Below, piece by piece: positions 4,693-24,355 of a stretch of 32,000 nt of DNA. The stretch spans positions 270,001 to 302,000 of the forward strand of contig NZ_CP042911.1 in the NCBI RefSeq assembly GCF_008065095.1. Direction: 5' to 3'. Source of the stretch: Gemmata obscuriglobus. Lineage in GTDB: Bacteria; Planctomycetota; Planctomycetia; Gemmatales; Gemmataceae. The position numbers and the translations under genes are program-made. Each line of letters begins with the position of its first letter. The stretch's first letter is position 1. A model generated the notes under the pieces. That model saw only the letters and a program-made list of their open reading frames with translations, was not told the DNA's origin and made no database searches.

Positions 4693-4698
4693 GCGAGG

Positions 4699-4771
<73 letters not shown>

Positions 4772-9926: not shown

Positions 9927-12290
9927 TTATTGCCGGCCCTGGCTGCCGAACAGACCCATCGAGAAGCTGAACAGTTGGCGGTGGTCGTACGGCCCCTTCA
10001 CCACCGGGAACGCGAGGTCGAACGCCAGCGGGAGCGGCCCCAGCGCCGGCACCGACAGCCGGATGCCCGTACCCACCGACACCCGGTAGTCCTTGATGTC
10101 GAACTTGCTCTCCACCGTCCCGTGGTCCACGAACGCGACCCAGAACATCTTCTCGCTCGGCAGAATCGGGATCTGGTACTCGATCGAGTTGAGCAGCGAG
10201 AACGTGCCGCCGACCGCCAGCGTGTTCTCGTACGGCCCGACCCCGCGGAAGCTGAACCCGCGGAAGCTCCGGATGCCGCCGGCGTAGAACCGCTCGAACA
10301 CCGGGGCGTTGGTGCCCGCGACCGCCACCTGGGTGCGGAACCCGAGCACGTGGCGCTGGCTCCCGTCCTCGCGGGCCAGGTACTTGGTGGAGAAGAACTG
10401 GGTGAACTCGGCCGTCCCGACCGGGAACGTGTAGTCCCCGAGCACCTGCTCGAACCCGGCGTCGAACATGCTCCCCTTCGTCGGGTAGATGTACGAGTCG
10501 CGGGTGTCGCGGGTGATCCCGGCCCGCAGCCCGAGCAGGAAGTGGTTCCCCGCGTCCTTGGCGATCGACCACGGGGCGTACGCGGGCACGTCGCGCACGT
10601 TCACCCCCTCGACGCGGGTGCTGGCCGACGCGGTCCAGATCGAGTCCAGCCGCCGGTCGATGGTGACGCGCCCGCCGTACCGGTCCTCGTTGTACTCCGC
10701 GAACGAGCGGTTGTAGAAGTACGCCGCGGTGGTCAGCCCGAACGGGGTGTCGAACAGGTACGGCTCCCGGAACGTCGCCGAGTACCGCTGGAACGTGGTG
10801 CCCGGCGCGGCCTCGAGGCGCAGCTCCTGGCCGGCCCCGCGGAACGCCCGGCCGTACCGGAAGTCGTCCCAGCTCGTCGGGATGCGGGTGATGTCGAAGT
10901 TGCGCTCGTTGAGCGAGATGTTACCCGTCAGCCCGGCGTCCGAGTTCACGCTGCCGCCGAAGATGACCTGCCCGGTGCGGGTCTCCTTCACCCGCACGTC
11001 AATGTCCTTGAACGAGGTGTCCAGCTCGTTCGGCACGTCCCGGACCGTCGGCGGCTCCTCCATATCGAAGAGGCCGAGGCGCGAGAGGCGCATCTGGGCC
11101 TCCTCGAGCTTCGGGTACTCGAGGATCTGTCCCGGCCGCAGGTCGAGCTGGTTCAAGATGACGCGGTCGCGGGTGATGTCGTTGCCCTGGATTCTGATGC
11201 GCCCGACCCGGTCCGGCACCCCGCGGTCGTTGCCCACGACGTACTGCACCTGGACGACGCCGGGCTCGACCTCGTACCACTGCTCATCGATGGGCACGTT
11301 GTGCCCGCGGCTGCCGTAATACTCGCGGAGCCGCGTTTGGTCGCGCTGGGCGATGCGGCGGTCGTACCGGTCCCCGGGCTTCAGCTCGGTGACCGCCATG
11401 AGCTTGTCGGTCTCGAACGACTTGTTGCCGGTGATGATCTTGTCGGAGACGCGGTACTGCTGGCCCTCGACGATGTGGTACACGATGGTGACGCGGCTCT
11501 GGTCGGCCGAGCGGCGCACCTCGGGCTCGATCTTGACCGCGAGGTAGCCGAGCGCCTGGTAGTACTCGGTGAGCGCCTTGCGGTCCATCTCGATCGTCAT
11601 CGGGTTGAACTTGCCGCCGATCGCGCCCGCGAACGCCGTCTTCGTGGTGATCTGGGTCTTGAGCCGCCCGGTGATCGCGCCGACGTTGCCGACGAACTCG
11701 ACGCCCGCCACCTTCACGACCGGCCCTTCGACGATGTTGTACACGACGCGGCTGTCGGTCGGTTTGTTCCCCTCGACCAGTTCGACGGTCGCGTGGTACC
11801 GCCCGTCGTCCTGGTAGCGGCGCAGGATCGCGGCGCGGCCGACCTCGTTGGCCATCGGGTTCATGGCGTCGCCCTTGCGCAGCCCGGTGAGCGTGCGCAG
11901 GTCGCCGTCGCTGAGGTGCTGCGCCCCGTGGTACACGATCTCCTGGACCGTGTTGCCCAGTTCGGTGACGACGAACGTGACCGTCACCCGGCCGTCGGCT
12001 TCGTTGGTGGTGAGCACGCGGACGCCGTCGGCCGTGAACCAGCGCGTGCTCTGGAGCCGGCGCACGTCCTCTTGAACGAGCGCCTGGTCGTAGGGCTTGC
12101 CGGCGCGGCTGTGGACCATGTTGAGGATCTGGGCGGACGAGCGGAGGCGGCTTCCGGCGGTTTGGACCTCGGCAATCGTTTTCCCCTGCGGGTTGTCGGC
12201 CGCGGTCAGCCACCCGCGCGAGCCCGCGAGCAGCGCGAGCGCGAACACGGCGGCTACGAGCCACGGACGGAGACGACGACAGGCGGGCAT
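9927..12290 (-). CDS. bamA: outer membrane protein assembly factor BamA (Omp85, POTRA repeats plus beta-barrel)
   Basis: 787 aa with a signal peptide, repeated POTRA-like segments (VEFVGN..., IRIQGNDITRDRVILNQL) and a C-terminal Omp85 barrel ending in an aromatic-rich tail. Confidence 0.92.
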   Translation of the reverse strand: MPACRRLRPWLVAAVFALALLAGSRGWLTAADNPQGKTIAEVQTAGSRLRSSAQILNMVHSRAGKPYDQALVQEDVRRLQSTRWFTADGVRVLTTNEADGRVTVTFVVTELGNTVQEIVYHGAQHLSDGDLRTLTGLRKGDAMNPMANEVGRAAILRRYQDDGRYHATVELVEGNKPTDSRVVYNIVEGPVVKVAGVEFVGNVGAITGRLKTQITTKTAFAGAIGGKFNPMTIEMDRKALTEYYQALGYLAVKIEPEVRRSADQSRVTIVYHIVEGQQYRVSDKIITGNKSFETDKLMAVTELKPGDRYDRRIAQRDQTRLREYYGSRGHNVPIDEQWYEVEPGVVQVQYVVGNDRGVPDRVGRIRIQGNDITRDRVILNQLDLRPGQILEYPKLEEAQMRLSRLGLFDMEEPPTVRDVPNELDTSFKDIDVRVKETRTGQVIFGGSVNSDAGLTGNISLNERNFDITRIPTSWDDFRYGRAFRGAGQELRLEAAPGTTFQRYSATFREPYLFDTPFGLTTAAYFYNRSFAEYNEDRYGGRVTIDRRLDSIWTASASTRVEGVNVRDVPAYAPWSIAKDAGNHFLLGLRAGITRDTRDSYIYPTKGSMFDAGFEQVLGDYTFPVGTAEFTQFFSTKYLAREDGSQRHVLGFRTQVAVAGTNAPVFERFYAGGIRSFRGFSFRGVGPYENTLAVGGTFSLLNSIEYQIPILPSEKMFWVAFVDHGTVESKFDIKDYRVSVGTGIRLSVPALGPLPLAFDLAFPVVKGPYDHRQLFSFSMGLFGSQGRQ

Positions 12291-12887: not shown

Positions 12888-13967
12888 ATGTACTACAATT
12901 TGGTCGCGAGCCCGGCTCTCCCGTCCGTTCACACTGCACCATTTATGTTCGCTATCCCTGAAGCACTTTACAAACTCGCACCGGTCACACTGCCGAGCCG
13001 CCGCTCCGAGCGGTTCAACGGGGCCGGCTACGAGGTTCCGCTGTCCCGGTTCGCGCCCGCCGATCGGGAGATCCTCGGTCGCGTGTACCAGAGCGTCAAC
13101 GGGCTGCCGCAGCTTTGGCACCCGATGCGGCATGACGCGGATTACTCGGTTCTGGAAGCGTACATCCGCCGGGTCGGCGGCGGCGGCGCGTTGCTGGCCG
13201 AAGTGGGCCACCTCGGGGAGGCGACACTGGCCGCCGGCGCGTCTGATCCCGCAATCCGCAAGGCGGTTCACGACATCCGCGGGGGCGGGCTCACCCTACT
13301 GCTCGGCACGGCCGACCTGCTCGACATCATGCCCGGGAACCGGAACGTCGTCCGCAAGTGCGTGGACGCCGCCCGGGATCACGCCAAGATTATGCGCAAC
13401 CTGCTTCCGGACATCGACCCGGTGGTGCGGGCGGCGGACGAGGCCACGAAGGCGCACACGATCGATCACTTCACGTCCAAATGGGACGGCATGGCGACGC
13501 GCGGCCAGACCGGGCCGGTGTTGGTAAGCATGCGGTGCTTGTTCACCGGGGCCATCTCGGCCCGGTGTCTGGAGACCTCCTCAATCGACCGCGTCGTTTA
13601 CAACTACGTGAACAACGCAGTACGGTTCGCGGCCGGCGGGGCCGTCACGGTGTGGATCTTCCCGGTAACGTCCGGGCTCACCCGGTGGGTGGTGCAGAAC
13701 GCCATCGGCGCCGACCAGGAGGCGTTCCTGGCCGAGCGAGTGGGGGACCTGGGGCGGTTGTTCGCGGGCGGGATCACCCGCGGCGGCACCGGGGTGGGAC
13801 TGGCCAACTGCGCCGAGATCGTGGCCGACTGCTTCGGGCTGGCCTCCCCGGCCGAGGCCGTATCCCGCGGGTATTTGGGTGCGGCAACGAGGGCGGGCGA
13901 CTACTTCACCTGGTTCCACTGGCCGGCCTACACGCCGGGCGCGGTTCACACCGCCATGGCGGTGTGA
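12888..13967 (+). CDS. histidine-kinase-like (GHKL) ATPase protein, soluble, no adjacent receiver
   Basis: H-box-like VHDIRGGGLTLLLG, N-box VVYNYVNNAVRFA, G2-like GGTGVGLANCAEIV. No TM segments. The start is uncertain (an alternative ATG gives MFAIPEAL at 12945). Confidence 0.7.
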   Translation: MYYNLVASPALPSVHTAPFMFAIPEALYKLAPVTLPSRRSERFNGAGYEVPLSRFAPADREILGRVYQSVNGLPQLWHPMRHDADYSVLEAYIRRVGGGGALLAEVGHLGEATLAAGASDPAIRKAVHDIRGGGLTLLLGTADLLDIMPGNRNVVRKCVDAARDHAKIMRNLLPDIDPVVRAADEATKAHTIDHFTSKWDGMATRGQTGPVLVSMRCLFTGAISARCLETSSIDRVVYNYVNNAVRFAAGGAVTVWIFPVTSGLTRWVVQNAIGADQEAFLAERVGDLGRLFAGGITRGGTGVGLANCAEIVADCFGLASPAEAVSRGYLGAATRAGDYFTWFHWPAYTPGAVHTAMAV

Positions 13968-15536: not shown

Positions 15537-15750
15537 GGCGCGTCTCCACGATGCGGGCGAATGGCGAACGTGGAGCCGCAAGTGGTGTGCCAAGCGCCGT
15601 CGATCACCGGCTCAAAAGGAAATGGGCGACCACTCTATTCGATTTAGCTTGGCGATCGGGAAAAAATAGTTGTTTTAACGTGCGCAGCCGGTTGCACGCC
15701 TGCGTTTGCCACTTACAGCCACGTTGAAGAGGTCGGAGGGTGTGCCCGAC

Positions 15751-17250
15751 CAGGCCATTCACGGTGCCGTCCGTAATTGTAAGGTGTTTCCAGGGAACGA
15801 TTAGTGTGCTCTACGGACGGACGGGCTCATGATTCTTGGCGCCGTGTTCGAGCGATTCATGAACGAGAGCCCATTAAGCGTCATGTCCCGTGCCACGATC
15901 GAACACGCGCTGTCGGCTTCGGCTCTGGATGCGTTGTTCGCACGGGTGGCGGAGCGCGGGTACACTCGGGAGCTGTTGTTCTCCACGGTGGTGGAGCTGA
16001 TGAGCGCGGTGGTGTGCGGTAAGGCGCACCATGTGCAATCGGCGTATCAGCAGATGGCGGACCGGATCCCGGTGTCCCTGAAGTCGGTGTACGAGAAGCT
16101 GCAACATCTTGAGCCGGCGGTGTCGGCCGCGTTGGTGCGGCACGTGGCGGATCGGTGCCACGAGCTGATCCAGCAGTTGGGTGGGGAGCGCTCGCCGGTG
16201 CTGTCCGGCCGGGCCGTTCGGGTTCTGGACGGGAATCACTTGGGGGCCACCCAGAAGCGGCTCCGGGTGACCCGCGGGCGCACCGCCGGACCGCTCCCGG
16301 GGCTGGTCCTTGCGGTTCTGGATCCGGCCCAGATGCGGATCACGGACCTGATCCCATGCGAGGACGGTCACACCCAGGAGCGGGCTCTTTTGGATCAGGT
16401 GGTGCCGCTGGTGCAACCGGACCAGGTGTGGGTCGCGGATCGGAACTTCTGCACCGCCGAGTTCGTGTCCCGGATCGATCAGCGGGGCGCGTTCTTCGCG
16501 ATCCGCCGACACGGGAACACCACACTCGACCCGGCCGGGGAATGGACCCCGGACGTGCGCACCGCGACCGGGTGGGTGAGCGAGCGACCGGTGTGGGTGT
16601 GCGTGGGCGGTGAGCCGGTGCTGCGGGTACGGTGCGTGCGCGTGCGGTTGGATCATCCGACCGGAGACGGGGACGCGGAGATCGAGATCCTGACCAACCT
16701 GCCGGAGGACGAGGCGGACGCGGTGGTGGTGGCCGTCGTGTATCGGGGGCGGTGGGCCATCGAAGGCGCGTTCCACGAGCTGACCGTGGCGCTGCGGTGC
16801 GAGGTGAACACGCTCGGGTATCCGAAGGCGGCCCTGTTCGGGTTCGCGGTGGCGGTGGTGGGGTACAACGTGCTCGCGGTGCTCAAGGCCGCAATGCGAG
16901 CGGTACACGGAGCGGACACGGTGCAGAAGGATGTATCCGGGTACTACGTGGCCTTGGAATGGGCCACCGTGTACCCGGGCATGATGATCGCCCTCCCTCC
17001 GGCCGAGTGGGTCGTGTTCGGTACCCTCTCGGCCGACCAACTGGCCCCGCAGCTTCGGGACTGGGCCGCGAAGATCAACCTGAAGAAGGTCCAGAAGGCA
17101 CCGCCTCGTAAACCGACGAAACAGAAGCCCCCGCGCATCAACGACAATAGCCCGCATGTCTCGACCGCCCGGTTACTCGAAGACGAACGGAAGAGCAGCC
17201 GGACAAAAATTAAGGCACGTAAACAAGAGTAGCCCACCGTGAATGGCCTG
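15751..17250 (+). mobile_element. IS4-family insertion sequence, 1500 bp, intact
   Basis: Perfect 16-bp TIRs: CAGGCCATTCACGGTG (15751-15766) and CACCGTGAATGGCCTG (17235-17250). It is flanked by the direct repeat GGTGTGCCCGAC (15739-15750 and 17251-17262) and holds a single transposase ORF. Confidence 0.9.
15829..17232 (+). CDS. IS4-family DDE transposase
   Basis: DDE candidates VLDGNH, WVADRNF and the Y-x2-R-x3-E signature YRGRWAIEGAFHELT. The stop lies 2 nt before the right TIR. Confidence 0.9.
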   Translation: MILGAVFERFMNESPLSVMSRATIEHALSASALDALFARVAERGYTRELLFSTVVELMSAVVCGKAHHVQSAYQQMADRIPVSLKSVYEKLQHLEPAVSAALVRHVADRCHELIQQLGGERSPVLSGRAVRVLDGNHLGATQKRLRVTRGRTAGPLPGLVLAVLDPAQMRITDLIPCEDGHTQERALLDQVVPLVQPDQVWVADRNFCTAEFVSRIDQRGAFFAIRRHGNTTLDPAGEWTPDVRTATGWVSERPVWVCVGGEPVLRVRCVRVRLDHPTGDGDAEIEILTNLPEDEADAVVVAVVYRGRWAIEGAFHELTVALRCEVNTLGYPKAALFGFAVAVVGYNVLAVLKAAMRAVHGADTVQKDVSGYYVALEWATVYPGMMIALPPAEWVVFGTLSADQLAPQLRDWAAKINLKKVQKAPPRKPTKQKPPRINDNSPHVSTARLLEDERKSSRTKIKARKQE

Positions 17251-17356
17251 GGTGTGCCCGACTGGCGGTTCCGACCGGTTGATTGACCCGTCGGTGCTAC
17301 AAGAACCGGGGGCTACGTGAGCACCCGCACGAGCGCGTGATTTGGAAGTGAGCTGT

Positions 17357-17413
17357 GGAAAACGCTCATCCGGATGAGTTGCCAGCCTCCCGAACTGGCA
17401 ACCCACCCGGATG
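17357..17413 (-). terminator. rho-independent terminator (minus strand), orphan
   Basis: 19-bp stem (17413-17395 / 17385-17367), 9-nt loop, then AGCGTTTTCC. Both non-Watson-Crick positions are G-U on the minus-strand RNA but A-C on the plus-strand RNA. Confidence 0.55.
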
Positions 17414-17540
17414 GGTTCAGCGGTGTGTCTGTCCGCCCGAGTTCGCTCGCGCCGCCTCTCCCCTCAACGCGATTCGTCGGTCGGTGATCACACCGCTGCG
17501 CTGACAGGGGAACTCGTCGTGTAAGACGACCTGTCGCGAT
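17358..17540 (-). ncRNA. candidate ~180-nt small RNA defined by a promoter-terminator pair
   Basis: Bounded by the TTGACT-16-CATAAT promoter and the terminator above. It contains no ORF with a start plus Shine-Dalgarno. A 5' stem-loop is possible (gacagg...cctgtc). Confidence 0.3.
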
Positions 17541-17546
17541 GAGGAT

Positions 17547-17574
17547 ATTATGGGTTGCGAACGTAAGGAGTCAA
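17547..17574 (-). promoter_or_regulatory. near-consensus sigma70-type promoter in AT-rich intergenic patch
   Basis: Minus strand: TTGACT (17574-17569), 16-nt spacer, CATAAT (17552-17547). Confidence 0.45.
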
Positions 17575-17823
17575 TGCTTAATTACTACTAACAAAATTCA
17601 CAATATTCACTTTGTCACCTCACGCGACGGTTCGCGTCTTTTCAGCGCGATTGTAGATCACCCCAATCGCTGTCTCGAACTCGGATGGTAAGTGGTGCCG
17701 AGTCGCACCCCGATGTGACTGGATGAAGTACCGAGAGGCAGGTAAGGCGGAAGCCTTTGATACAACCCGAGGGGCACGCGCCATTTCTTGGTGATACGCG
17801 TGGGTTCCGGCGCAGGTCGGCGT

Positions 17824-18483
17824 TCACTCGTCTTCGATCGTCAGGCCGCACCACGAGTTTTCCAGCTCGTCGAGCGTAACCCAAAACTCACCCGGCCCGT
17901 ACCCGTCGCGCTGGCGCTCTGCGGGGATGCCGTCGTTGTTGCCGTATGGGTTCCGGACCCGCGCCGTCCCGACGGAAGGTTCGTATTCCAGTAGCCCGAA
18001 GCAGTGCTGCGGCGGAACCCAGTTCAACTTCGGCGTCGTCCACTTTCCGTCCGACCCGCCCAGCACCATCAGCCGCCGCTGCGCGGTCGCGTTCTCCAAC
18101 TGGCGCCGCAGCCAGCGCCGCTTCGAGGTGATGTAGAGCGGGGCGAAGCCGGCTCCCAGGGCGTTCGTGTAGCCCGCGCGGTTGTGGCCCGTCAGCAGCC
18201 CGATGCCGAGGCCGTAAGACAGCATCCGCGGCGTCCGGGCGTCGCCCAGCTCCGCGTGCGCGGCGGCCTCCAGCGCCGCCGCGTACGGCGCGTCGTCCGC
18301 GCGGTCCGGCGTGACCGCGTGCGGCTCGCGGCCCGGGAACGTCACCACGAACGTTCGGGCCGGACCTTCTTGCAGCATACTGGTGAGCGCTTCGGGGCGC
18401 TGGAACGCCAGCCCGTCGAGGGCCGCGCGGAACCAGCAGTTGTTCCACGCGCCCTGGCGATGTGTGCGGTGGTCGATGCGCAT
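17824..18483 (-). CDS. calpain-like (peptidase C2 family) cysteine protease, minimal core, cytoplasmic
   Basis: QGAWNNCWFRAAL (Gln plus catalytic Cys; compare calpain QGxxGDCW), PQHCFGLLEY (His), VRNPYGNNDG (Asn; compare RNPWG), GEFWVTLDEL (compare GEFWMS). It starts 30 nt after the upstream gene's stop. Confidence 0.75.
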   Translation of the reverse strand: MRIDHRTHRQGAWNNCWFRAALDGLAFQRPEALTSMLQEGPARTFVVTFPGREPHAVTPDRADDAPYAAALEAAAHAELGDARTPRMLSYGLGIGLLTGHNRAGYTNALGAGFAPLYITSKRRWLRRQLENATAQRRLMVLGGSDGKWTTPKLNWVPPQHCFGLLEYEPSVGTARVRNPYGNNDGIPAERQRDGYGPGEFWVTLDELENSWCGLTIEDE

Positions 18484-18513
18484 CGCGCCACCAACAGTAG
18501 GAGGCGGAAGGGC

Positions 18514-20259
18514 TCACACCCGGAGCTTGATCTCTTCGAACGCGCTGGCGGACGGGGAGGCGCCGTCGCCCTCGATCACGGCGCGGACCACCTGGTCCTG
18601 GCGGAACGGCTTGAACAGCACGTGCCGCATCCCGTCGGCCCGGGCCTTCACGATGGAGTGCGCCACGTCGTACCCGAAGCCGGTGGTGAGCGCGATCGTC
18701 GCCCCGGGGGACGCGGCCTTCAGGCGGCGGTAGCACTCGTACCCGCCCAGGTCCGGCGGCTTCACCTCCTGGAAGATCGCGTCGTACCGCCCGTCCGCCG
18801 CCAGCGCGACCCCGTCGGCGCCGGTCGCGGCCGTCTCCACGGTCGCGCCGAGCCGCCCGAGCATCAGGTGCGCCGCCCGCCGGATCCGCTCGTCCGACTC
18901 CACCACCAGCACCCGCTTGCCGAGCAGCGGCTGGCTCCCCGGGGCCGGCGCGTCGGTCATGTCGCGGCCCACCTGCGCGATGCTGTCCTTCACCCGCCGC
19001 GCCGCGGTCAGGATGCGCCGCAGCCGGTCCGCGTCTTCGGGGGCGCCCCCGGCCCGCTCCAGCAGGACGCTCGCCCCGGTCAGGATCTCGTCGAGCGGCA
19101 GCGCGACCTCCTTGTTCACCGACTCGATCGACTGCCCGGCGGTGCAGAACTGCTGCGCGCTGAGCAGGTCCAGCGTGTGCAGCGCCGCCGCCACCTCCTT
19201 GCTGAACAGCTCCGTGAACTGGAGGTCGTCGGGGCCGAACCCGTCCGCCCGCGGGCTCTCGACGTTCAGCGTGCCGATCACCTCGTCCTGGAACTTCAGG
19301 GGGATGGTCATCGAGCTGCGGGCGCCGGCGGCGCCGGCGATGTAGTGCGGGTCGTGGGCCGTGTCGCGGCACAGGTAGCTGACCCCGGTGGCCGCGACGA
19401 ACCCGGTCACCCCGTTGTCGGTGCGCCGCGCGTACAGCACCCGCTGCGCCGCCTCCGGCAGCATCCCGTCTTCCAGCAGGGGCTTCAGCTCGCCCGTCGA
19501 GCGGTCGAGCAGTCGCACCTCGATCGTGTCGTAGTGGAGCAGGTCGCGGATGGTGCGCCGCAGGTTCGCCTTGAGCAGCTCGACCCGGGCCTCGACGTTC
19601 ATCTCGGTGAGCTGGTCGGCGTCGAGCCCGGCGAGCTCGCGGCCGGCCGTGTGGAGCGCGTCGAGCTTCTGCTGCTGGGCCACCATCGCGGTCACGTCGC
19701 GGACCACCGCGGTCAGCCCGGACACCCCGCCGTCGGGGCCGAACACCGGGCGGACGTCGATCTCCAGGAACGGCTGGTCGGCGCGGTCGGGCCGGTGGAC
19801 CCGGAGGGCCGTGGCGGCCCCGCGGCGGGCCGGGCTGAGCGGGTCGGCCAGGTCGTCGGGTGCGCCCGGGGGGACGACCCGCGAGCCGACCGGGCTCTCG
19901 AGGTTCTCGATCGACACGCGGTCGCTGCCCAGCGAGTCGAGCAGCGGGCGGCCGACCGGCTCGACCGCGGCGGCGGCCCGGAACACCGGGTTGGCCCACT
20001 GCACCACGCCCAGCGGGTCGAGGATCGCGAGCCCCCGCTCGATGTGGCTGATGATGAGCTCGTCGCGGCGCACCCGGTCGATCAGCCCCGCGACCACGTC
20101 CGGCGCGGCGACGACGGCCGCGTACCCGCCGGCGCGGAGCCGCCGGGCGACCTCGCCGGCGTCGGGCGACACCGGGTCGACGTCGGCGGTCGCCGCGAGC
20201 GCGCCATCGAGTGGCCCGGCGGACGGGCCGATCAGCAACAGGCGGGGGCGCTCGGTCAC
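18514..20259 (-). CDS. PAS/GAF signalling protein with H-box-like helix lacking His and C-terminal receiver with Glu at the phospho-acceptor position
   Basis: GAF-like block (GVTGFVAATGVSYLCRDTAHDPHY...IGTLNVES) and PAS-like block (GLAILDPLGVVQWANPVF). Receiver segment: KRVLVVESDE...DAIFQEVKPPDLGG...ALTTG...FKPF. I prefer the GTG at 20259, which follows GGAGG, over the listed start at 20397. Confidence 0.8.
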   Translation of the reverse strand: MTERPRLLLIGPSAGPLDGALAATADVDPVSPDAGEVARRLRAGGYAAVVAAPDVVAGLIDRVRRDELIISHIERGLAILDPLGVVQWANPVFRAAAAVEPVGRPLLDSLGSDRVSIENLESPVGSRVVPPGAPDDLADPLSPARRGAATALRVHRPDRADQPFLEIDVRPVFGPDGGVSGLTAVVRDVTAMVAQQQKLDALHTAGRELAGLDADQLTEMNVEARVELLKANLRRTIRDLLHYDTIEVRLLDRSTGELKPLLEDGMLPEAAQRVLYARRTDNGVTGFVAATGVSYLCRDTAHDPHYIAGAAGARSSMTIPLKFQDEVIGTLNVESPRADGFGPDDLQFTELFSKEVAAALHTLDLLSAQQFCTAGQSIESVNKEVALPLDEILTGASVLLERAGGAPEDADRLRRILTAARRVKDSIAQVGRDMTDAPAPGSQPLLGKRVLVVESDERIRRAAHLMLGRLGATVETAATGADGVALAADGRYDAIFQEVKPPDLGGYECYRRLKAASPGATIALTTGFGYDVAHSIVKARADGMRHVLFKPFRQDQVVRAVIEGDGASPSASAFEEIKLRV

Positions 20260-20290
20260 AACACCTCCGGGAGCGGGCGGGTGGTGTCGA

Positions 20291-20320
20291 ATTATAGCGA
20301 CCGGCGGCGCGCACCCACAA
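20291..20320 (-). promoter_or_regulatory. candidate promoter for the PAS/GAF-calpain operon
   Basis: Minus strand: TTGTGG (20320-20315), 18 nt, perfect TATAAT (20296-20291). This is about 30 nt upstream of the GTG at 20259. Confidence 0.35.
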
Positions 20321-20429
20321 GCAGACACGTCCGAGTTCGTCGCGCCGGCGGGCGGGCGGCCCGGATTTCGCGCCCGGCGCGGATTTCCCCGCGCCAAACG
20401 TCATACCCGGTTACCCTTCCCGCGTCCGG

Positions 20430-20435
20430 TAGAAT
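20430..20435 (+). promoter_or_regulatory. candidate -10 box for the ECF sigma gene
   Basis: TAGAAT lies 23 nt upstream of the ATG at 20459, with GAGGTG between them. No convincing -35 element. Confidence 0.3.
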
Positions 20436-20458
20436 AGACTTACCGCGAGGTGAACCCA

Positions 20459-21043
20459 ATGTCGGTCACGTCGGCCACACTCCTGGAACGGCTCCGCGAC
20501 CCGCGCGACGCGGACGCGTGGGGCCGGCTCGTCGACTTGTACGCCCCCCTCATACGGGTGTGGGCCGAGCGGCTCAACGTGCACGGGGCCGACGCCGACG
20601 ACCTGGTCCAGGAGGTCATGGCGGTGGTGGTGCGGCGGTTCCCGGAGTTCGTTCACCCGGAGAAGCCGGGGGCGTTCCGGGGCTGGCTCCGGGCGATCGC
20701 GGCGAACTGCGCCCGCTCGATGTGGAAGGCACGCCGGGTGCGCCCCACCGTCCCGGGCGGGTCGGACTTCGGGAGCTACCTGAACCGGCTCGAGGACCCG
20801 ACCGACGACTTCGCCCGCGCGTGGGAGCGGGAGCACGACCTGTTCGTGACGCGCAAGCTGCTCGACCGCATCCGCCCGGACTTCGAGACCCGCACCTGGG
20901 AGCTGTTCGGGCGGTTCGTGCTGGACGGGGTGCCCGCCGAGGAGGTGGCCGCCGAGGCCGGGGTGACCGCGAACGCGGTGTACATTGCCAAGTCGCGCGT
21001 CCTGGCCCGGCTCCGGCAGGAGGCGGGCGGGCTCCTCGGGTGA
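20459..21043 (+). CDS. ECF-type RNA polymerase sigma factor
   Basis: Region 2 (DADDLVQEVMAVVVRRFPEF...FRGWLRAIAAN) and region 4 (GVPAEEVAAEAGVTANAVYIAKSRVLARLR). I prefer the ATG at 20459; the listed GTG at 20450 lies inside the Shine-Dalgarno-like GAGGTG. Confidence 0.85.
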   Translation: MSVTSATLLERLRDPRDADAWGRLVDLYAPLIRVWAERLNVHGADADDLVQEVMAVVVRRFPEFVHPEKPGAFRGWLRAIAANCARSMWKARRVRPTVPGGSDFGSYLNRLEDPTDDFARAWEREHDLFVTRKLLDRIRPDFETRTWELFGRFVLDGVPAEEVAAEAGVTANAVYIAKSRVLARLRQEAGGLLG

Positions 21044-21280
21044 GTTCGGGGCCGCCCGCAGCATTTCGCGTTTAACCAGAAGGGCCGTTCGCGCCCCGCA
21101 CGAACGGTACAAAATTCGCCGATTATCCGCCGAGCGACGGCCCGAAACGCTGACAGGTGGTCCGGATCACGTGCCATCTTTTGATCGAACGTCGAGCGCC
21201 CAACCGTTCGAGGTTCCCGGGCCGAGCGCCGCCGGCGCCCGGGACCGCCAACGCGCCCCTGATCGATGAGGTTCGAGCTG

Positions 21281-23452
21281 ATGCCCCACCGCTGCCCCAC
21301 AACGGAAACGCTGGCTGCGTTCGTCCGGGGGGACCTGCCGCCCGACGAACTGGGCGCGGTCGCCGACCACGTGGACGGGTGCGCGGCGTGCGGCCGGGCG
21401 CTACAGTTCGTACCGGAAGACTCGCTCGCGGGCCTAGCCCGCGCCGCCGTCGCCGCGGACACGGTGCCCCGGTCGGCGGGCGGCGCGACGGCCATCGCCC
21501 CGGGCGCGCCGGCGAGCGCCCCCGAGGGGTTCGCGGACCACCCGCGGTACCGGATCGTCGGCCGGCTCGGGGCCGGCGGCATGGGCACCGTGTACAAGGC
21601 CGAAGACCTGTGGATGGGGCGGGTCATCGCGCTCAAGATCGTGTCGCCCCACCTCACCGCCAAGGCGTCGGCGATCGAGCGGTTCCGGAAGGAGATCCGG
21701 GTCGCCGCCCAGCTCAACGACCCGCGCATGGTCATCGCCCACGACACCGGCGAGGCCGGCGGGTGCCAGTTCCTCGTGATGGAGTACGTGGACGGGTTCA
21801 GCCTGGACCGGCTGGTCGCCAGGAAGGGGCCGCTCCCGGTCCACACCGCGTGCGCGCTCACCCGGTCCGCGGCCCTCGGGCTCCAGCACGCGGCCGAGAA
21901 GGGGATGGTCCACCGGGACATCAAGCCCCAGAACCTGATGGTCACGCGCAAGGGGCAGCTTAAAATCCTGGACTTCGGGCTGGCGCGGTTCGCGCACTCG
22001 GAGGCCGACGAGGGCGGGGCGGGCGGGCGGCTGCCGTTCGGGGCCGGCAAGGCGCTGGGCGGCGAGGGGCTGACGAACCCGCACATGCTGATGGGCACCC
22101 CGGACTACCTGTCGCCCGAGCAGGCCAAGAACTCGCACGACGTGGACCACCGCAGCGACATCTACTCGCTCGGCTGCACGCTGTACTTCCTGCTCACCGG
22201 GGTCCCCCCGTTCGGAGGCGCCGAGGCGCTACTGGACAAGCTCCTGGCTCACACCCACGAGGCGCCCCCGTCGCCGTGCGACGTGCGGCCCGAGGTGCCC
22301 GCCGGGCTCGACTCGATCCTGAACCGGATGATGGCGAAGCGCCCCGAGGAGCGGTACCAGACGGCCGCCGAGGTGGCCGCCGCGCTGCTCCCGTTCACCC
22401 GGGCCGACGTGGCCCGCGAGCCCGTCTTCGAGGTGGTCGATGCGGTCGTGGTGGCGCCCGCGCGGGCCGCGAGCATCGCCCTCTCGGGGCCGCTGTCCGA
22501 CACGACCCCGGCCGCGCAGCAGCGGACCCTGATCGACACCCCGGCCCGCCCGCGGCGGCCGCGCAAGAAGAAGCCGACGTGGTGGAAGCGGCGCAAGGGC
22601 ACCGTGGTCACCGGCACGCTGGCGGCCGTGCTGCTGCTCGTCGGCGGCGCGGTTGCCAACACGGTCCGGAAGAAGCTGGCGGACCCGGCGCCCGACACGA
22701 CCGCTGCGCTGAAACCGGCCGCAGGCGACGCGCCGCCCCGGGCGGCCGATGCGCAGCCCCGGCCCGATGTCCGGAACGAAAAAACAGACAAAATCGACCA
22801 GGGCGAAAAGCCCGACAAGCCCAGGGACGAGAAACCGCCGGCTCCCCCGACGCCGGTTCCGCCGCTGGTGATCGCTCCGCAAAAGAGGCCGCAGGTCCTG
22901 TACGTGCTCCCGAGCGACGGGGTCAGCCTGAAGGAGTTCGGTGAGGTGCGGGACCACCTCGTGAAGAACGGCGTCACGGTCGTGACCGCGTCGTTCTCGG
23001 GCGATCTGGCCCGGCCGGGGCGGCGGCCGGCCGCGCCGCCTCTTCCCCCCGTTCCCGTCGACAAGGCGCTCCGGGCGGAAATGGACCTCTCCGACTTCGC
23101 CGCGGTGCTCTTCTGTGGCGACCGGGTGGATGAGTACGTGCCCGGCGGGCGCGGCGCGCAAGCGGCGGGCGCGGTGATTCAGCGGATGCAGGCGACCGGT
23201 AAACCGGTGGGCGCCATCGCCTCGGGGCTGGCGGTACTCGCCACGCACGGGACGCTCAAAGGTAAACGTGCGGCGCACAGTTGGCCCCTCGTGAGCACTT
23301 ACCCCAACGGACACTGGGACAAGTTGAACATTAACTGGGAACGAGGAGAGAAGGGGCGGGTGGTGGTGGACGACAAGATCGTGACCGCCGGCGGGCCGCG
23401 CGAGGCCGCCGAGTTCGCCGACGCCGTGCTCAAGCTGATCGGCGAGAAGTAA
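21281..23452 (+). CDS. Ser/Thr protein kinase with N-terminal HxxxCxxC (ZAS-like) motif, one TM segment and C-terminal DJ-1/PfpI-like domain
   Basis: ADHVDGCAACG. Kinase motifs GAGGMGTVYKA, HRDIKPQNLMV, DFGLAR, SPEQ. TM segment TGTLAAVLLLVGGAV. DJ-1-like QVLYVLPSDGV...DFAAVLFCGD...KPVGAIASGLAVLA...VVVDDKIVTAGGP. The ATG at 21281 follows GAGG; an alternative ATG is at 21266. Confidence 0.88.
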   Translation: MPHRCPTTETLAAFVRGDLPPDELGAVADHVDGCAACGRALQFVPEDSLAGLARAAVAADTVPRSAGGATAIAPGAPASAPEGFADHPRYRIVGRLGAGGMGTVYKAEDLWMGRVIALKIVSPHLTAKASAIERFRKEIRVAAQLNDPRMVIAHDTGEAGGCQFLVMEYVDGFSLDRLVARKGPLPVHTACALTRSAALGLQHAAEKGMVHRDIKPQNLMVTRKGQLKILDFGLARFAHSEADEGGAGGRLPFGAGKALGGEGLTNPHMLMGTPDYLSPEQAKNSHDVDHRSDIYSLGCTLYFLLTGVPPFGGAEALLDKLLAHTHEAPPSPCDVRPEVPAGLDSILNRMMAKRPEERYQTAAEVAAALLPFTRADVAREPVFEVVDAVVVAPARAASIALSGPLSDTTPAAQQRTLIDTPARPRRPRKKKPTWWKRRKGTVVTGTLAAVLLLVGGAVANTVRKKLADPAPDTTAALKPAAGDAPPRAADAQPRPDVRNEKTDKIDQGEKPDKPRDEKPPAPPTPVPPLVIAPQKRPQVLYVLPSDGVSLKEFGEVRDHLVKNGVTVVTASFSGDLARPGRRPAAPPLPPVPVDKALRAEMDLSDFAAVLFCGDRVDEYVPGGRGAQAAGAVIQRMQATGKPVGAIASGLAVLATHGTLKGKRAAHSWPLVSTYPNGHWDKLNINWERGEKGRVVVDDKIVTAGGPREAAEFADAVLKLIGEK

Positions 23453-23512: not shown

Positions 23513-24355
23513 TCATGCGCCAAGCATGGAACGCCGGAAGAACTCCCAAATCATTTCGGTGGCGCGGACCGCGGTCGAGGGCGGGCCGGCGAGCCGCGGG
23601 TTCAGCAGCGCCCGGCCGCCGGGCCAGTGGTGCCCGAGCCCTTCAATCGTTACCGCGTCGAACGTGACCGGGCCGGGGTACGTGTCTACCCGGACCGCCG
23701 GATCGTCGCTCCGGACGACCGGTGCGGCCGCACACCCGAGCGCCTGCGCCCAGCGTTCGAGCGTGTCGGTGACCGGCGGCCGCCGCACGAGGCGCTGGTT
23801 CCAGGGCAAGCGCACGTCCCCGCCGCGGAGCGGGATCAGCAGGTCTCGTGTGCCGACTGTGTAGAGCGTGGGCACCGGGCGCAAAAGTTGCAGGTCACCA
23901 ACCCAACAGTAACCGGCGACCGGCGCGATCGCGGCCACCCGATCGGCGGCCTCAGCGGCCAACCGGAACGCCATTCCGGCGCCGTTCGAGAACCCTGTTA
24001 CAAACACGTGCCGCGGATCGACTTCGTAACGAACGGCCGCGTCATCGATAACCGCGGTCAGAAACTCGACGTCGTTTTGTTGTGGCTGTTGGAACAGCGG
24101 CGGCGAGCCGTCGTTCCACCGCGGCGGGTTTGTGAGGAAGGTGGGCGGTGCCGCCGGGTCGGGCGGGAGTGCCTCCGGCACCGCAAGCGCAAAACCTTCC
24201 TGGCGAGCGAGTTCGGACCAACCAGTTTCCCGATCGGCCCACTCCGCCGTTCCGCCGGTGCCGGTCAGGAAGACCACGAGAGGGGCGCCCGGGGCAGCCG
24301 GGAAAATGAGCCATTCCCGAGAAAATCCGCCGATTTCTGACTGATTTCGTTCCAC
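23513..24355 (-). CDS. alpha/beta hydrolase, PHB-depolymerase-family esterase (LpqC-like)
   Basis: The GFSNGAGMA nucleophile elbow and overall LpqC-like layout (PLVVFLTGTGGTA..., GHHWPGG). Confidence 0.8.
   Translation of the reverse strand: MERNQSEIGGFSREWLIFPAAPGAPLVVFLTGTGGTAEWADRETGWSELARQEGFALAVPEALPPDPAAPPTFLTNPPRWNDGSPPLFQQPQQNDVEFLTAVIDDAAVRYEVDPRHVFVTGFSNGAGMAFRLAAEAADRVAAIAPVAGYCWVGDLQLLRPVPTLYTVGTRDLLIPLRGGDVRLPWNQRLVRRPPVTDTLERWAQALGCAAAPVVRSDDPAVRVDTYPGPVTFDAVTIEGLGHHWPGGRALLNPRLAGPPSTAVRATEMIWEFFRRSMLGA

Follow-up and report, generated by a model that had tools for sequence, protein, structure and literature searches.

A PAS-GAF sensor with a C-terminal pseudo-receiver and a compact calpain-type protease encoded side by side in Gemmata obscuriglobus

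A 32,000-nucleotide (nt) stretch of the Gemmata obscuriglobus genome (contig NZ_CP042911.1, positions 270,001 to 302,000; referred to, over its whole length, as the window) encodes on its minus strand a sensor protein of 581 amino acids (aa), which combines PAS and GAF domains with a C-terminal pseudo-receiver, and, directly downstream of it, a calpain-type cysteine protease of 219 aa. It is rather likely that the two genes are separate, each of a known kind, and that they became neighbours by insertion in a single Gemmata sublineage, where they are probably co-expressed from the sensor promoter. Both proteins are uncharacterised members of described classes, namely the Glu-type pseudo-receivers and the peptidase-only bacterial calpains. 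An earlier, sequence-only reading of this DNA had proposed that the two form a dedicated system for ligand-gated proteolysis. This proposal is unsupported, given that the sensor mostly occurs without the protease, the protease occurs elsewhere without the sensor, and none of the 118 longer protease relatives scanned carries a REC, GAF or PAS domain fused to its calpain core.

Both open reading frames (ORFs) lie on the minus strand where that reading had placed them, with exactly 30 nt between the stop codon of the sensor (18514-18516) and the ATG of the protease (18483) (Table 1). The sensor is 100% identical to G. obscuriglobus WP_010047070.1, and a GGAGGTG Shine-Dalgarno motif is located 4 nt 5' of its GTG start codon. 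The protease is 100% identical to WP_010047072.1, annotated as 'hypothetical protein GobsT_02590'. Co-transcription of the two genes is plausible from their shared strand, the short gap and the nature of the spacer, in which no terminator-like site or hairpin was found. The G+C content at third codon positions is 0.89 in the protease and 0.986 in the sensor. Long ORFs are also encoded on the opposite strand (e.g. 18004-21075); these are best taken as the usual by-product of a 73% G+C content, with homology favouring the minus-strand genes. A role of the two proteins in anti-phage defence was also considered and dropped, as a PADLOC search gave no match to either the sensor or the protease.

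All five informative loci of the closest clade carry the pair, with protease identities of 73-91% and the gaps listed in Table 1. Among nine loci encoding protease homologues at 44-53% identity (in Gemmataceae, Urbifossiella and other Planctomycetia) there is none with the sensor nearby, and none of the six sensor orthologues on genomes or long contigs (Frigoriglobus, GCA_000531095 and four others) has the protease beside it. A metagenome scan with the sensor profile, in which a downstream flank was counted when at least 700 nt long, similarly revealed no protease homologue beside the sensor in 80 loci, including the 63 with an adequate downstream flank. Conservation of the gene pair, one of the checks proposed for the sequence-only reading, is thus observed within the closest Gemmata clade but not beyond close relatives. 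With the pairing confined to a few close relatives within Gemmata, a dedicated sensor-protease system is weakly supported and unproven.

The order of genes around the sensor points to the origin of the pair. A pyrroloquinoline quinone (PQQ)-propeller gene occurs directly 3' of the sensor in loci L007 and L024, and farther from it in L026, L027 and L006, where the gap is larger or other genes intervene. In L023 the order is instead sensor, protease, PQQ-propeller gene, and comparison of this order with that in L007 and L024 points to an insertion of the protease between the sensor and the PQQ gene in one sublineage. The protease would be a patchy accessory gene of the Gemmataceae, without the EF-hand or surface-protein extensions of its relatives, which landed at this position in the ancestor shared by G. 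obscuriglobus, G. algarum and a small number of uncultured relatives, and which would now most likely be expressed by read-through from the sensor promoter. Insertion and read-through would make the link between the two genes one of shared expression, rather than that of an obligate sensor-effector pair. Outside Gemmata no recurrent neighbour of the protease was found, except for an esterase-like gene in two Urbifossiella loci. An esterase-like 280-aa ORF without a Pfam match is also located in the window (23513-24355, minus strand), 5 kb from the protease and beyond the sensor and the sigma factor and kinase genes described below; its homologues, 58-61% identical, adjoin a protease homologue divergently in two Urbifossiella contigs (L016, 887-1741; L018, 50-889).

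The same evidence bears on the alternative that the sensor directly gates the mini-calpain, whereby a ligand or redox signal received by the PAS and GAF domains would cause the hairpin and pseudo-receiver to bind the protease and activate or inhibit it, independently of phosphorylation. This is improbable. Although the shared strand and the 30-nt spacer without a terminator-like site would fit such coupling, the sensor family is older and far wider than the pair and nearly unchanged where the protease is missing (none in 63 metagenomic and six genomic or long-contig loci), and the protease orthologues elsewhere function without the sensor (none in nine loci). Calpain cores fused to REC, GAF or PAS are lacking among the relatives scanned, and the Glu substitution in the sensor receiver both predates the protease and is independent of it. 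The adaptors RssB (RpoS/ClpXP) and CpdR (ClpXP) offer a conceptual precedent for receiver-controlled proteolysis, but they match the sensor by generic receiver-domain similarity only, and as phosphorylatable adaptors they serve AAA+ proteases rather than a calpain. It is similarly doubtful that, in the G. obscuriglobus/G. algarum lineage, a core, phosphorylation-independent PAS-GAF pseudo-receiver protein has recruited a minimal cytoplasmic calpain to serve as its new output.

Several points nevertheless weigh against the interpretation of the two genes as separate units joined by insertion. The adjacency is kept in all five genomes of the Gemmata clade despite differing outer flanks (in the window an insertion sequence (IS) element with non-coding DNA, in L023 the PQQ gene, in L003 an extracytoplasmic function (ECF) sigma gene, and in L022 other ORFs), and this could reflect selection for the pair instead of the shortness of the spacer alone. 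A cytoplasmic protease core without regulatory domains, lacking the regulatory EF-hands that many of its relatives have, needs control, for which the upstream sensor is an obvious candidate. The confidence in the relative placement of the domains in the sensor model is low (predicted template modelling score (pTM) 0.44). Finally, the phosphomimetic character of Glu498 at the phospho-acceptor position of the receiver, as discussed below, is inferred, and for some pseudo-receivers hypotheses of this kind have turned out to be wrong (PMC12632262).

The PAS-like and GAF-like segments recognised in the sensor from sequence alone were confirmed, as both exceed the Pfam thresholds (PAS_4, 27.5 bits, cut-off 23.1, E-value 3.8e-6; GAF, 53.6 bits, E-value 4.2e-14) and have matching folds in the AlphaFold2 model (predicted local distance difference test (pLDDT) 78.8; pTM as above). 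The model, in which PAS spans residues 76-188 and GAF residues 245-335, further includes a conserved N-terminal mini-domain (residues 6-51), which had been overlooked previously. The GAF domain is the most conserved part of the sensor, with many invariant columns, and Foldseek searches retrieved the GAF domain of the cAMP-binding Lcd1, that of PtsP, and fRMsr, at template modelling (TM) scores of 0.71-0.80 (target-normalised). With the whole sensor, Foldseek returned only PAS-GAF or GAF matches, including phytochrome PAS-GAF modules, and these are uninformative on the hairpin. A phytochrome reading of the sensor was dropped on account of the low identity (8-14%), the high root mean square deviation and the generic nature of the PAS-GAF arrangement. 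Neither HisKA nor HATPase_c was matched by Pfam in the sensor, even at E ≤1, and an HATPase domain is likewise absent from the model, so that the claimed lack of this domain is borne out. Sensor family members, 46-97% identical, are encoded across more than 100 genomes or metagenome contigs, with the best 120 homologues showing 59-100% identity.

Between the GAF and receiver domains, the AlphaFold2 model predicts a 60-residue helix (residues 343-402) which folds back on a second helix (residues 407-434). This region had been described as an H-box-like helix with Lys in place of the phospho-His of HisKA. The motif VNKEVALPL is indeed in register with SHELRTPL, and hhalign against the dimerisation and histidine phosphotransfer (DHp) region of HK853 places Lys383 opposite the His, albeit with a probability of 0.5% and an E-value of 0.13. 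The likeness to HisKA is not significant, nor is it accompanied by a hidden Markov model (HMM) match, and when a profile of the hairpin alignment was searched against the PDB, nothing beyond chance matches (E >0.5) came up. No conserved His occurs in the hairpin among the family alignments; His361 was considered as an alternative phospho-His and dropped, as several members of the wider family have Arg or Asn in its place. On sequence and model grounds, 'DHp-like hairpin without His' is a fair description of this region, and the loss of a His is undemonstrated because the hairpin could not be shown to be homologous to HisKA. DHp-only scaffolds and pseudo-histidine kinases, such as DivL of Caulobacter, carry sensory domains followed by a dimeric hairpin that is devoid of a phospho-His, and are presumed to signal via protein contacts. 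DivL, however, keeps an HATPase domain and a recognisable HisKA, whereas neither is detectable in the sensor, whose hairpin is of unproven homology to DHp.

The C-terminal domain of the sensor adopts a (beta-alpha)5 fold in the AlphaFold2 model (residues 449-563) and matches 69 PDB receiver sequences at E ≤0.01, including CtrA and RssB. Alignment to CtrA (4qpj) and others upheld the claim that Glu occupies the phospho-acceptor position, and because Glu498 replaces the acceptor Asp the domain is considered a pseudo-receiver. Thr525 and Lys550-Pro551 are conserved in the sensor family, as had been reported, but the acidic pocket that was said to be kept consists of E454-S455-D456 rather than a DD pair, with the HMM alignment placing Ser at the second acidic position. 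This [ED]-x-D pattern is common to the whole family, including the members which carry the acceptor Asp. Among the 118 sensor homologues, 106 have Glu and 12 have Asp as the acceptor residue. Nearly all family members at ≥60% identity have Glu, most of those at 50-60% have Asp (FLDVKP), and Glu reappears in separate, more distant branches (L070-L072, L083 and L084), while the Thr, Lys and [ED]-x-D stay fixed. Of the two phosphorylation sites that the sensor was thought to have lost, it is thus the acceptor Asp which is absent, at a position where Asp and Glu alternate within the family, and the same cannot be said of the His.

Glu is the most common residue at the D position of pseudo-receivers, where it can be (partly) phosphomimetic (PMC12632262), and by analogy Glu498 may be phosphomimetic rather than simply dead. 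In the Glu-type pseudo-receivers of the plant PRR proteins, the fungal Rim15p and bacteria (Bourret et al. 2025, PMC12632262), Asp has been exchanged for Glu with retention of the Thr and Lys, as in the sensor. Some relatives within the Rim15p family still carry Asp, which is also the case in the sensor family. The sensor differs from these proteins in that its pseudo-receiver lies C-terminal to PAS, GAF and hairpin regions and is without a recognisable output domain. The sensor is a core planctomycete signalling protein, widely conserved and expressed from a conserved promoter of housekeeping type. It would dimerise through the long helix and hairpin, and its nearly invariant GAF domain, together with the PAS domain, would sense a small ligand or a redox state. 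The output of the signal would be a conformational change and protein contacts of the C-terminal pseudo-receiver, as opposed to His-Asp phosphotransfer. Many more distant members still carry the acceptor Asp, whose place is taken by Glu in the Gemmata branch, with the Thr and Lys kept. Most likely, the Glu would bias the receiver towards its 'on' conformation and shift control to the sensory domains.

The assignment of the 219-aa protein to the calpain (C2) peptidases is supported by its fold, by profile alignment and by its set of Gln, Cys, His and Asn residues. The protein alone scores 12.8 bits against the Pfam Peptidase_C2 model (PF00648), under the cut-off of 23.8, in a match of 21 residues around QGAWNNCWF, and a single-sequence PDB search gave only a chance match to LysR. 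A profile of the protease family does, however, reach calpains in the PDB, weakly (E 0.02), and aligns over residues 8-212 to m-calpain (1KFU). The catalytic Cys, His and Asn are in register in this alignment, facing the m-calpain motifs QGALGDCW (Cys), GHAY (His; GHAYS) and RNPWG (Asn). With the AlphaFold2 model of the protease (pLDDT 87.1; pTM 0.88), the 38 best Foldseek matches in the PDB are all calpains (E 5e-9 to 1.7e-3), with query-normalised TM scores of 0.46-0.69, the best ones reaching 0.65-0.69. Cys16 is invariant in 118 relatives, and in the 19-sequence family there is one exception, a sequence without its N-terminus. Gln10 is nearly invariant in the orthologue family, while His160 is invariant in both this family and the wider relatives. 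Position 178 is occupied by N or D among the orthologues, with Asp in most of those outside Gemmata, and nearly always by N in the wider relatives. Further invariant family positions include P179 and a GPxEFW block (G196, P197, E199, F200 and W201). No signal peptide is possible, in agreement with the original claim, because the first start codon beyond the preceding stop is followed by Cys16. The sequence and the model together indicate that the protein is a genuine and probably active core of the calpain family, which is shortened at either end, stands alone and is cytoplasmic.

Clustering at 90% identity resulted in 20 protease orthologue clusters (44-91% identity), nearly all of 205-240 aa. 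Peptidase_C2 is matched at E ≤0.1 by 14 of 19 orthologues (best 2.2e-8) and, in a domain scan which took in 118 longer proteins among the wider relatives, at E ≤0.001 by 114 of these (best 1.8e-24), so that the HMM check fails for the protease alone and succeeds for its orthologues and relatives. In an exhaustive profile search, a protease-like core was identified in 2279 representative clusters at E ≤0.001, nearly all of them longer proteins with the core, of ~220 residues, at the C-terminus. N-terminal EF-hands are found in 32 of the 118 longer relatives, and a few have surface-protein domains. Two giant relatives, P0158 (6902 aa) and P0182 (6523 aa), comprise 7-8 matched stretches. RHS repeats occur in one calpain-core relative among P0141-P0287, and SdrD_B, Calx-beta and cadherin domains in another.

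Whether the protein is a working endopeptidase may be questioned, not only from its score below the Pfam threshold, but also from its size, ~100 residues shorter than calpain cores (target-normalised TM ~0.47), from the replacement of the Trp of the calpain RNPWG motif (NPYG, DPHG or DPRG), and from weaker Foldseek matches which include phytochelatin synthase (E 4e-3). It could then be a papain-fold amidase or transferase of other specificity, or a pseudo-enzyme. This is very unlikely in view of the family-wide conservation of Gln10, Cys16, His160 and Asn/Asp178 in register with calpain, the strength of the Peptidase_C2 matches of its relatives and the exclusively calpain identity of the best structural matches.

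Bacterial calpain homologues are rare, patchily distributed and without Ca sites, and many comprise the peptidase domain only (PMC4631099); the Rawlings 2015 survey of MEROPS family C2, which includes Tpr of Porphyromonas gingivalis, lists a single homologue from the Planctomycetes (PMC4631099). The protease shares the calpain-type papain fold and the Gln/Cys/His/Asn active site with these proteins. It differs from them in its small size (219 aa), in the position of its catalytic Cys (residue 16), in having neither a signal peptide nor a membrane anchor, in the replaced Trp and in falling below the Pfam threshold by itself. The best structural matches are to the eukaryotic calpain core (PC1-PC2; 1KXR, 6BKJ and 2P0R), to which the protease is only ~17% identical; the C2-like and penta-EF-hand domains of eukaryotic calpains are also lacking.

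The region between the sensor and the divergent ECF sigma gene (20260-20458) had been noted to hold two near-consensus -10 boxes, both of which are real: TATAAT on the minus strand and TAGAAT/TAGACT on the plus strand. Alignment of 15 ECF-sensor intergenic regions (that of the window and those of L006, L007, L009, L020, L024-L028, L034, L035, L037, L038 and L074) revealed that the sensor box is conserved, with GCTTGTG(G/A), ~18 nt and TATAAT kept upstream of the sensor in 15/15. A TAGACT/TAAACT-like box which faces the ECF gene, 15-20 nt from its start, is also kept in the 15 loci. The conserved core of the control region amounts to ~90 nt, and equals the whole region in the shortest loci, with lineage-specific GC-rich insertions between the two boxes in Gemmata and some other lineages. 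A sigma-70 consensus scan of the control region found nothing; the sensor promoter was missed because its -35 element matches the consensus at only 3/6 positions. The conservation of TTGTGG-18-TATAAT in 15 loci therefore indicates that the sensor is driven by a housekeeping-type promoter.

The gene following the divergent ECF sigma gene codes for a fusion protein with a zf-HC2 anti-sigma-type zinc finger at the N-terminus, a Ser/Thr kinase and a DJ-1/PfpI domain at the C-terminus, and the two genes are conserved as a pair in Frigoriglobus and other Gemmataceae. The ECF sigma gene (72-98% identity) adjoins the sensor in the window, L009, L006, L007 and L020, as well as in 11 of the 64 metagenomic loci with an upstream flank, all of which have a sensor identity of at least 64%, and the kinase-fusion gene often accompanies it. 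The ECF sigma gene is therefore a more widely conserved neighbour of the sensor than the protease is. The sensor may consequently be thought to have its partner on this side, as a substrate of the kinase or a modulator of the sigma/anti-sigma pair, with the protease an irrelevant or late addition. The pairing of ECF groups with Ser/Thr kinases has been described in Planctomycetes (PMC7826278), and the compact control region of ~90 nt is held in common, both in line with such a partnership. The ECF gene is, however, missing from 53 of the 64 loci, so that the link is limited to the Gemmataceae-like branch (≥64% identity), and the sensor promoter is sigma-70-like rather than ECF-like, which renders a partnership of this kind rather unlikely.

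Table 1. Features of the sensor-protease locus in the window and sensor-protease gaps in related loci. Positions are those of the window.
Feature	Position or length	Strand	Remarks
Sensor gene	18514..20259	minus	581 aa, GTG start; Pfam, protein match, AlphaFold2 model
N-terminal beta-alpha-beta-alpha-beta mini-domain	20107..20259	minus	Residues 1-51, conserved RPRLLLIGP; AlphaFold2 and conservation
PAS domain	19690..20046	minus	Residues ~72-190; Pfam and model
GAF domain core	19234..19527	minus	Residues ~245-342; Pfam and model
Two-helix hairpin, DHp-like	18958..19233	minus	Helices 343-402 and 407-434, AlphaFold2 model
Lys383 codon, where a phospho-His would sit	19111-19113	minus	Column is Lys or Arg
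Pseudo-receiver domain	18571..18915	minus	Residues 449-563; Response_reg 47.9 bits (cut-off 30.2)
Glu498 codon, phospho-acceptor position	18766-18768	minus	Opposite phospho-Asp of CtrA receiver (4qpj)
Sensor-protease spacer	18484..18513	minus	30 nt, GGTGG Shine-Dalgarno-like motif
Protease gene	17824..18483	minus	219-aa compact calpain-type (peptidase C2) core
Gln10 codon, oxyanion hole	18454-18456	minus	Conserved; in register with calpain
Cys16 codon, catalytic	18436..18438	minus	Faces m-calpain catalytic Cys
His160 codon, catalytic	18004..18006	minus	Invariant; faces His of m-calpain GHAYS
Asn178 codon in VRNPYG, third triad residue	17950..17952	minus	Faces Asn of calpain RNPWG
Sensor promoter	20291..20320	minus	TTGTGG (20315-20320), 18-nt spacer, TATAAT (20291-20296)
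-10-like TAGAAT overlapping TAGACT	20430..20440	plus	Upstream of divergent ECF sigma gene
Divergent ECF sigma gene	ATG 20459 (probable), end 21043	plus	Pfam detects region 2 only; together with the fusion gene, 20450..23452
zf-HC2 / Ser-Thr kinase / DJ-1-PfpI fusion gene	21266-23452	plus	728 aa; Pfam
Sensor-protease gap, window	30 nt
Sensor-protease gap, L009 (G. algarum)	34 nt
Sensor-protease gap, L003	120 nt
Sensor-protease gap, L022	153 nt		Sensor C-terminus RHVLFKPFRPEQVV... upstream of protease
Sensor-protease gap, L023	~34 nt		Sensor end ...EEVRLRV* upstream of protease

Several other features were observed in the window. An IS4-like insertion sequence (15750-17251) encodes a DDE_Tnp_1 transposase (15829-17232, plus strand). 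Its terminal inverted repeats (15750-15766 and 17235-17251) are perfect over 17 nt, and it is accompanied by a target duplication of 12 bp, GGTGTGCCCGAC. The insertion looks recent, and in silico excision of the element restores no long ORF. Between this element and the protease gene is a non-coding stretch of 570 nt (17252-17823, minus strand), with ~58% G+C in a 70% genome, which carries a near-consensus sigma-70 promoter, TTGACT-16-CATAAT (17574..17547). The sequence downstream of this promoter (17545..17300) is strongly structured (minimum free energy -112 kcal/mol, z = -4.0), with a ~20-bp hairpin, and the stretch could be a small RNA or leader. The stretch has no conserved counterpart 3' of the protease gene in G. 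algarum, and an Rfam scan of the window and of 17100-17900 detected only a tRNA-Ala and one sub-threshold chance match. The tRNA-Ala (GGC) gene is located at 4697-4771 (minus strand). A BamA-like protein of 787 aa, with five POTRA repeats and an Omp85 domain, is encoded at 9927-12290, and a 359-aa ORF at 12888-13967 has a weak HATPase_c match.

A 'hypothetical protein' of G. obscuriglobus can now be annotated as a compact C2-family peptidase, which belongs to a Gemmataceae family of ~20 clusters within a much larger set of bacterial calpain-like domains. The occurrence of this gene next to the sensor also illustrates how weakly the close spacing of two genes in a single genome argues for a functional module. 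If the capture of the calpain as an output of the sensor were nevertheless true, it would represent a ligand-gated proteolytic switch without a characterised bacterial counterpart, its effector gained by gene insertion. Such coupling would be the first case of a bacterial calpain-type protease under a dedicated cytoplasmic sensor, and would provide a concrete output for a pseudo-receiver, a class with largely unknown mechanisms (PMC12632262). Together with the peptidase, a very conserved planctomycete signalling family, composed of PAS, GAF, hairpin and receiver, is now defined, and the alternation of Asp and Glu at its acceptor position makes this family a natural test set for the phosphomimetic hypothesis.

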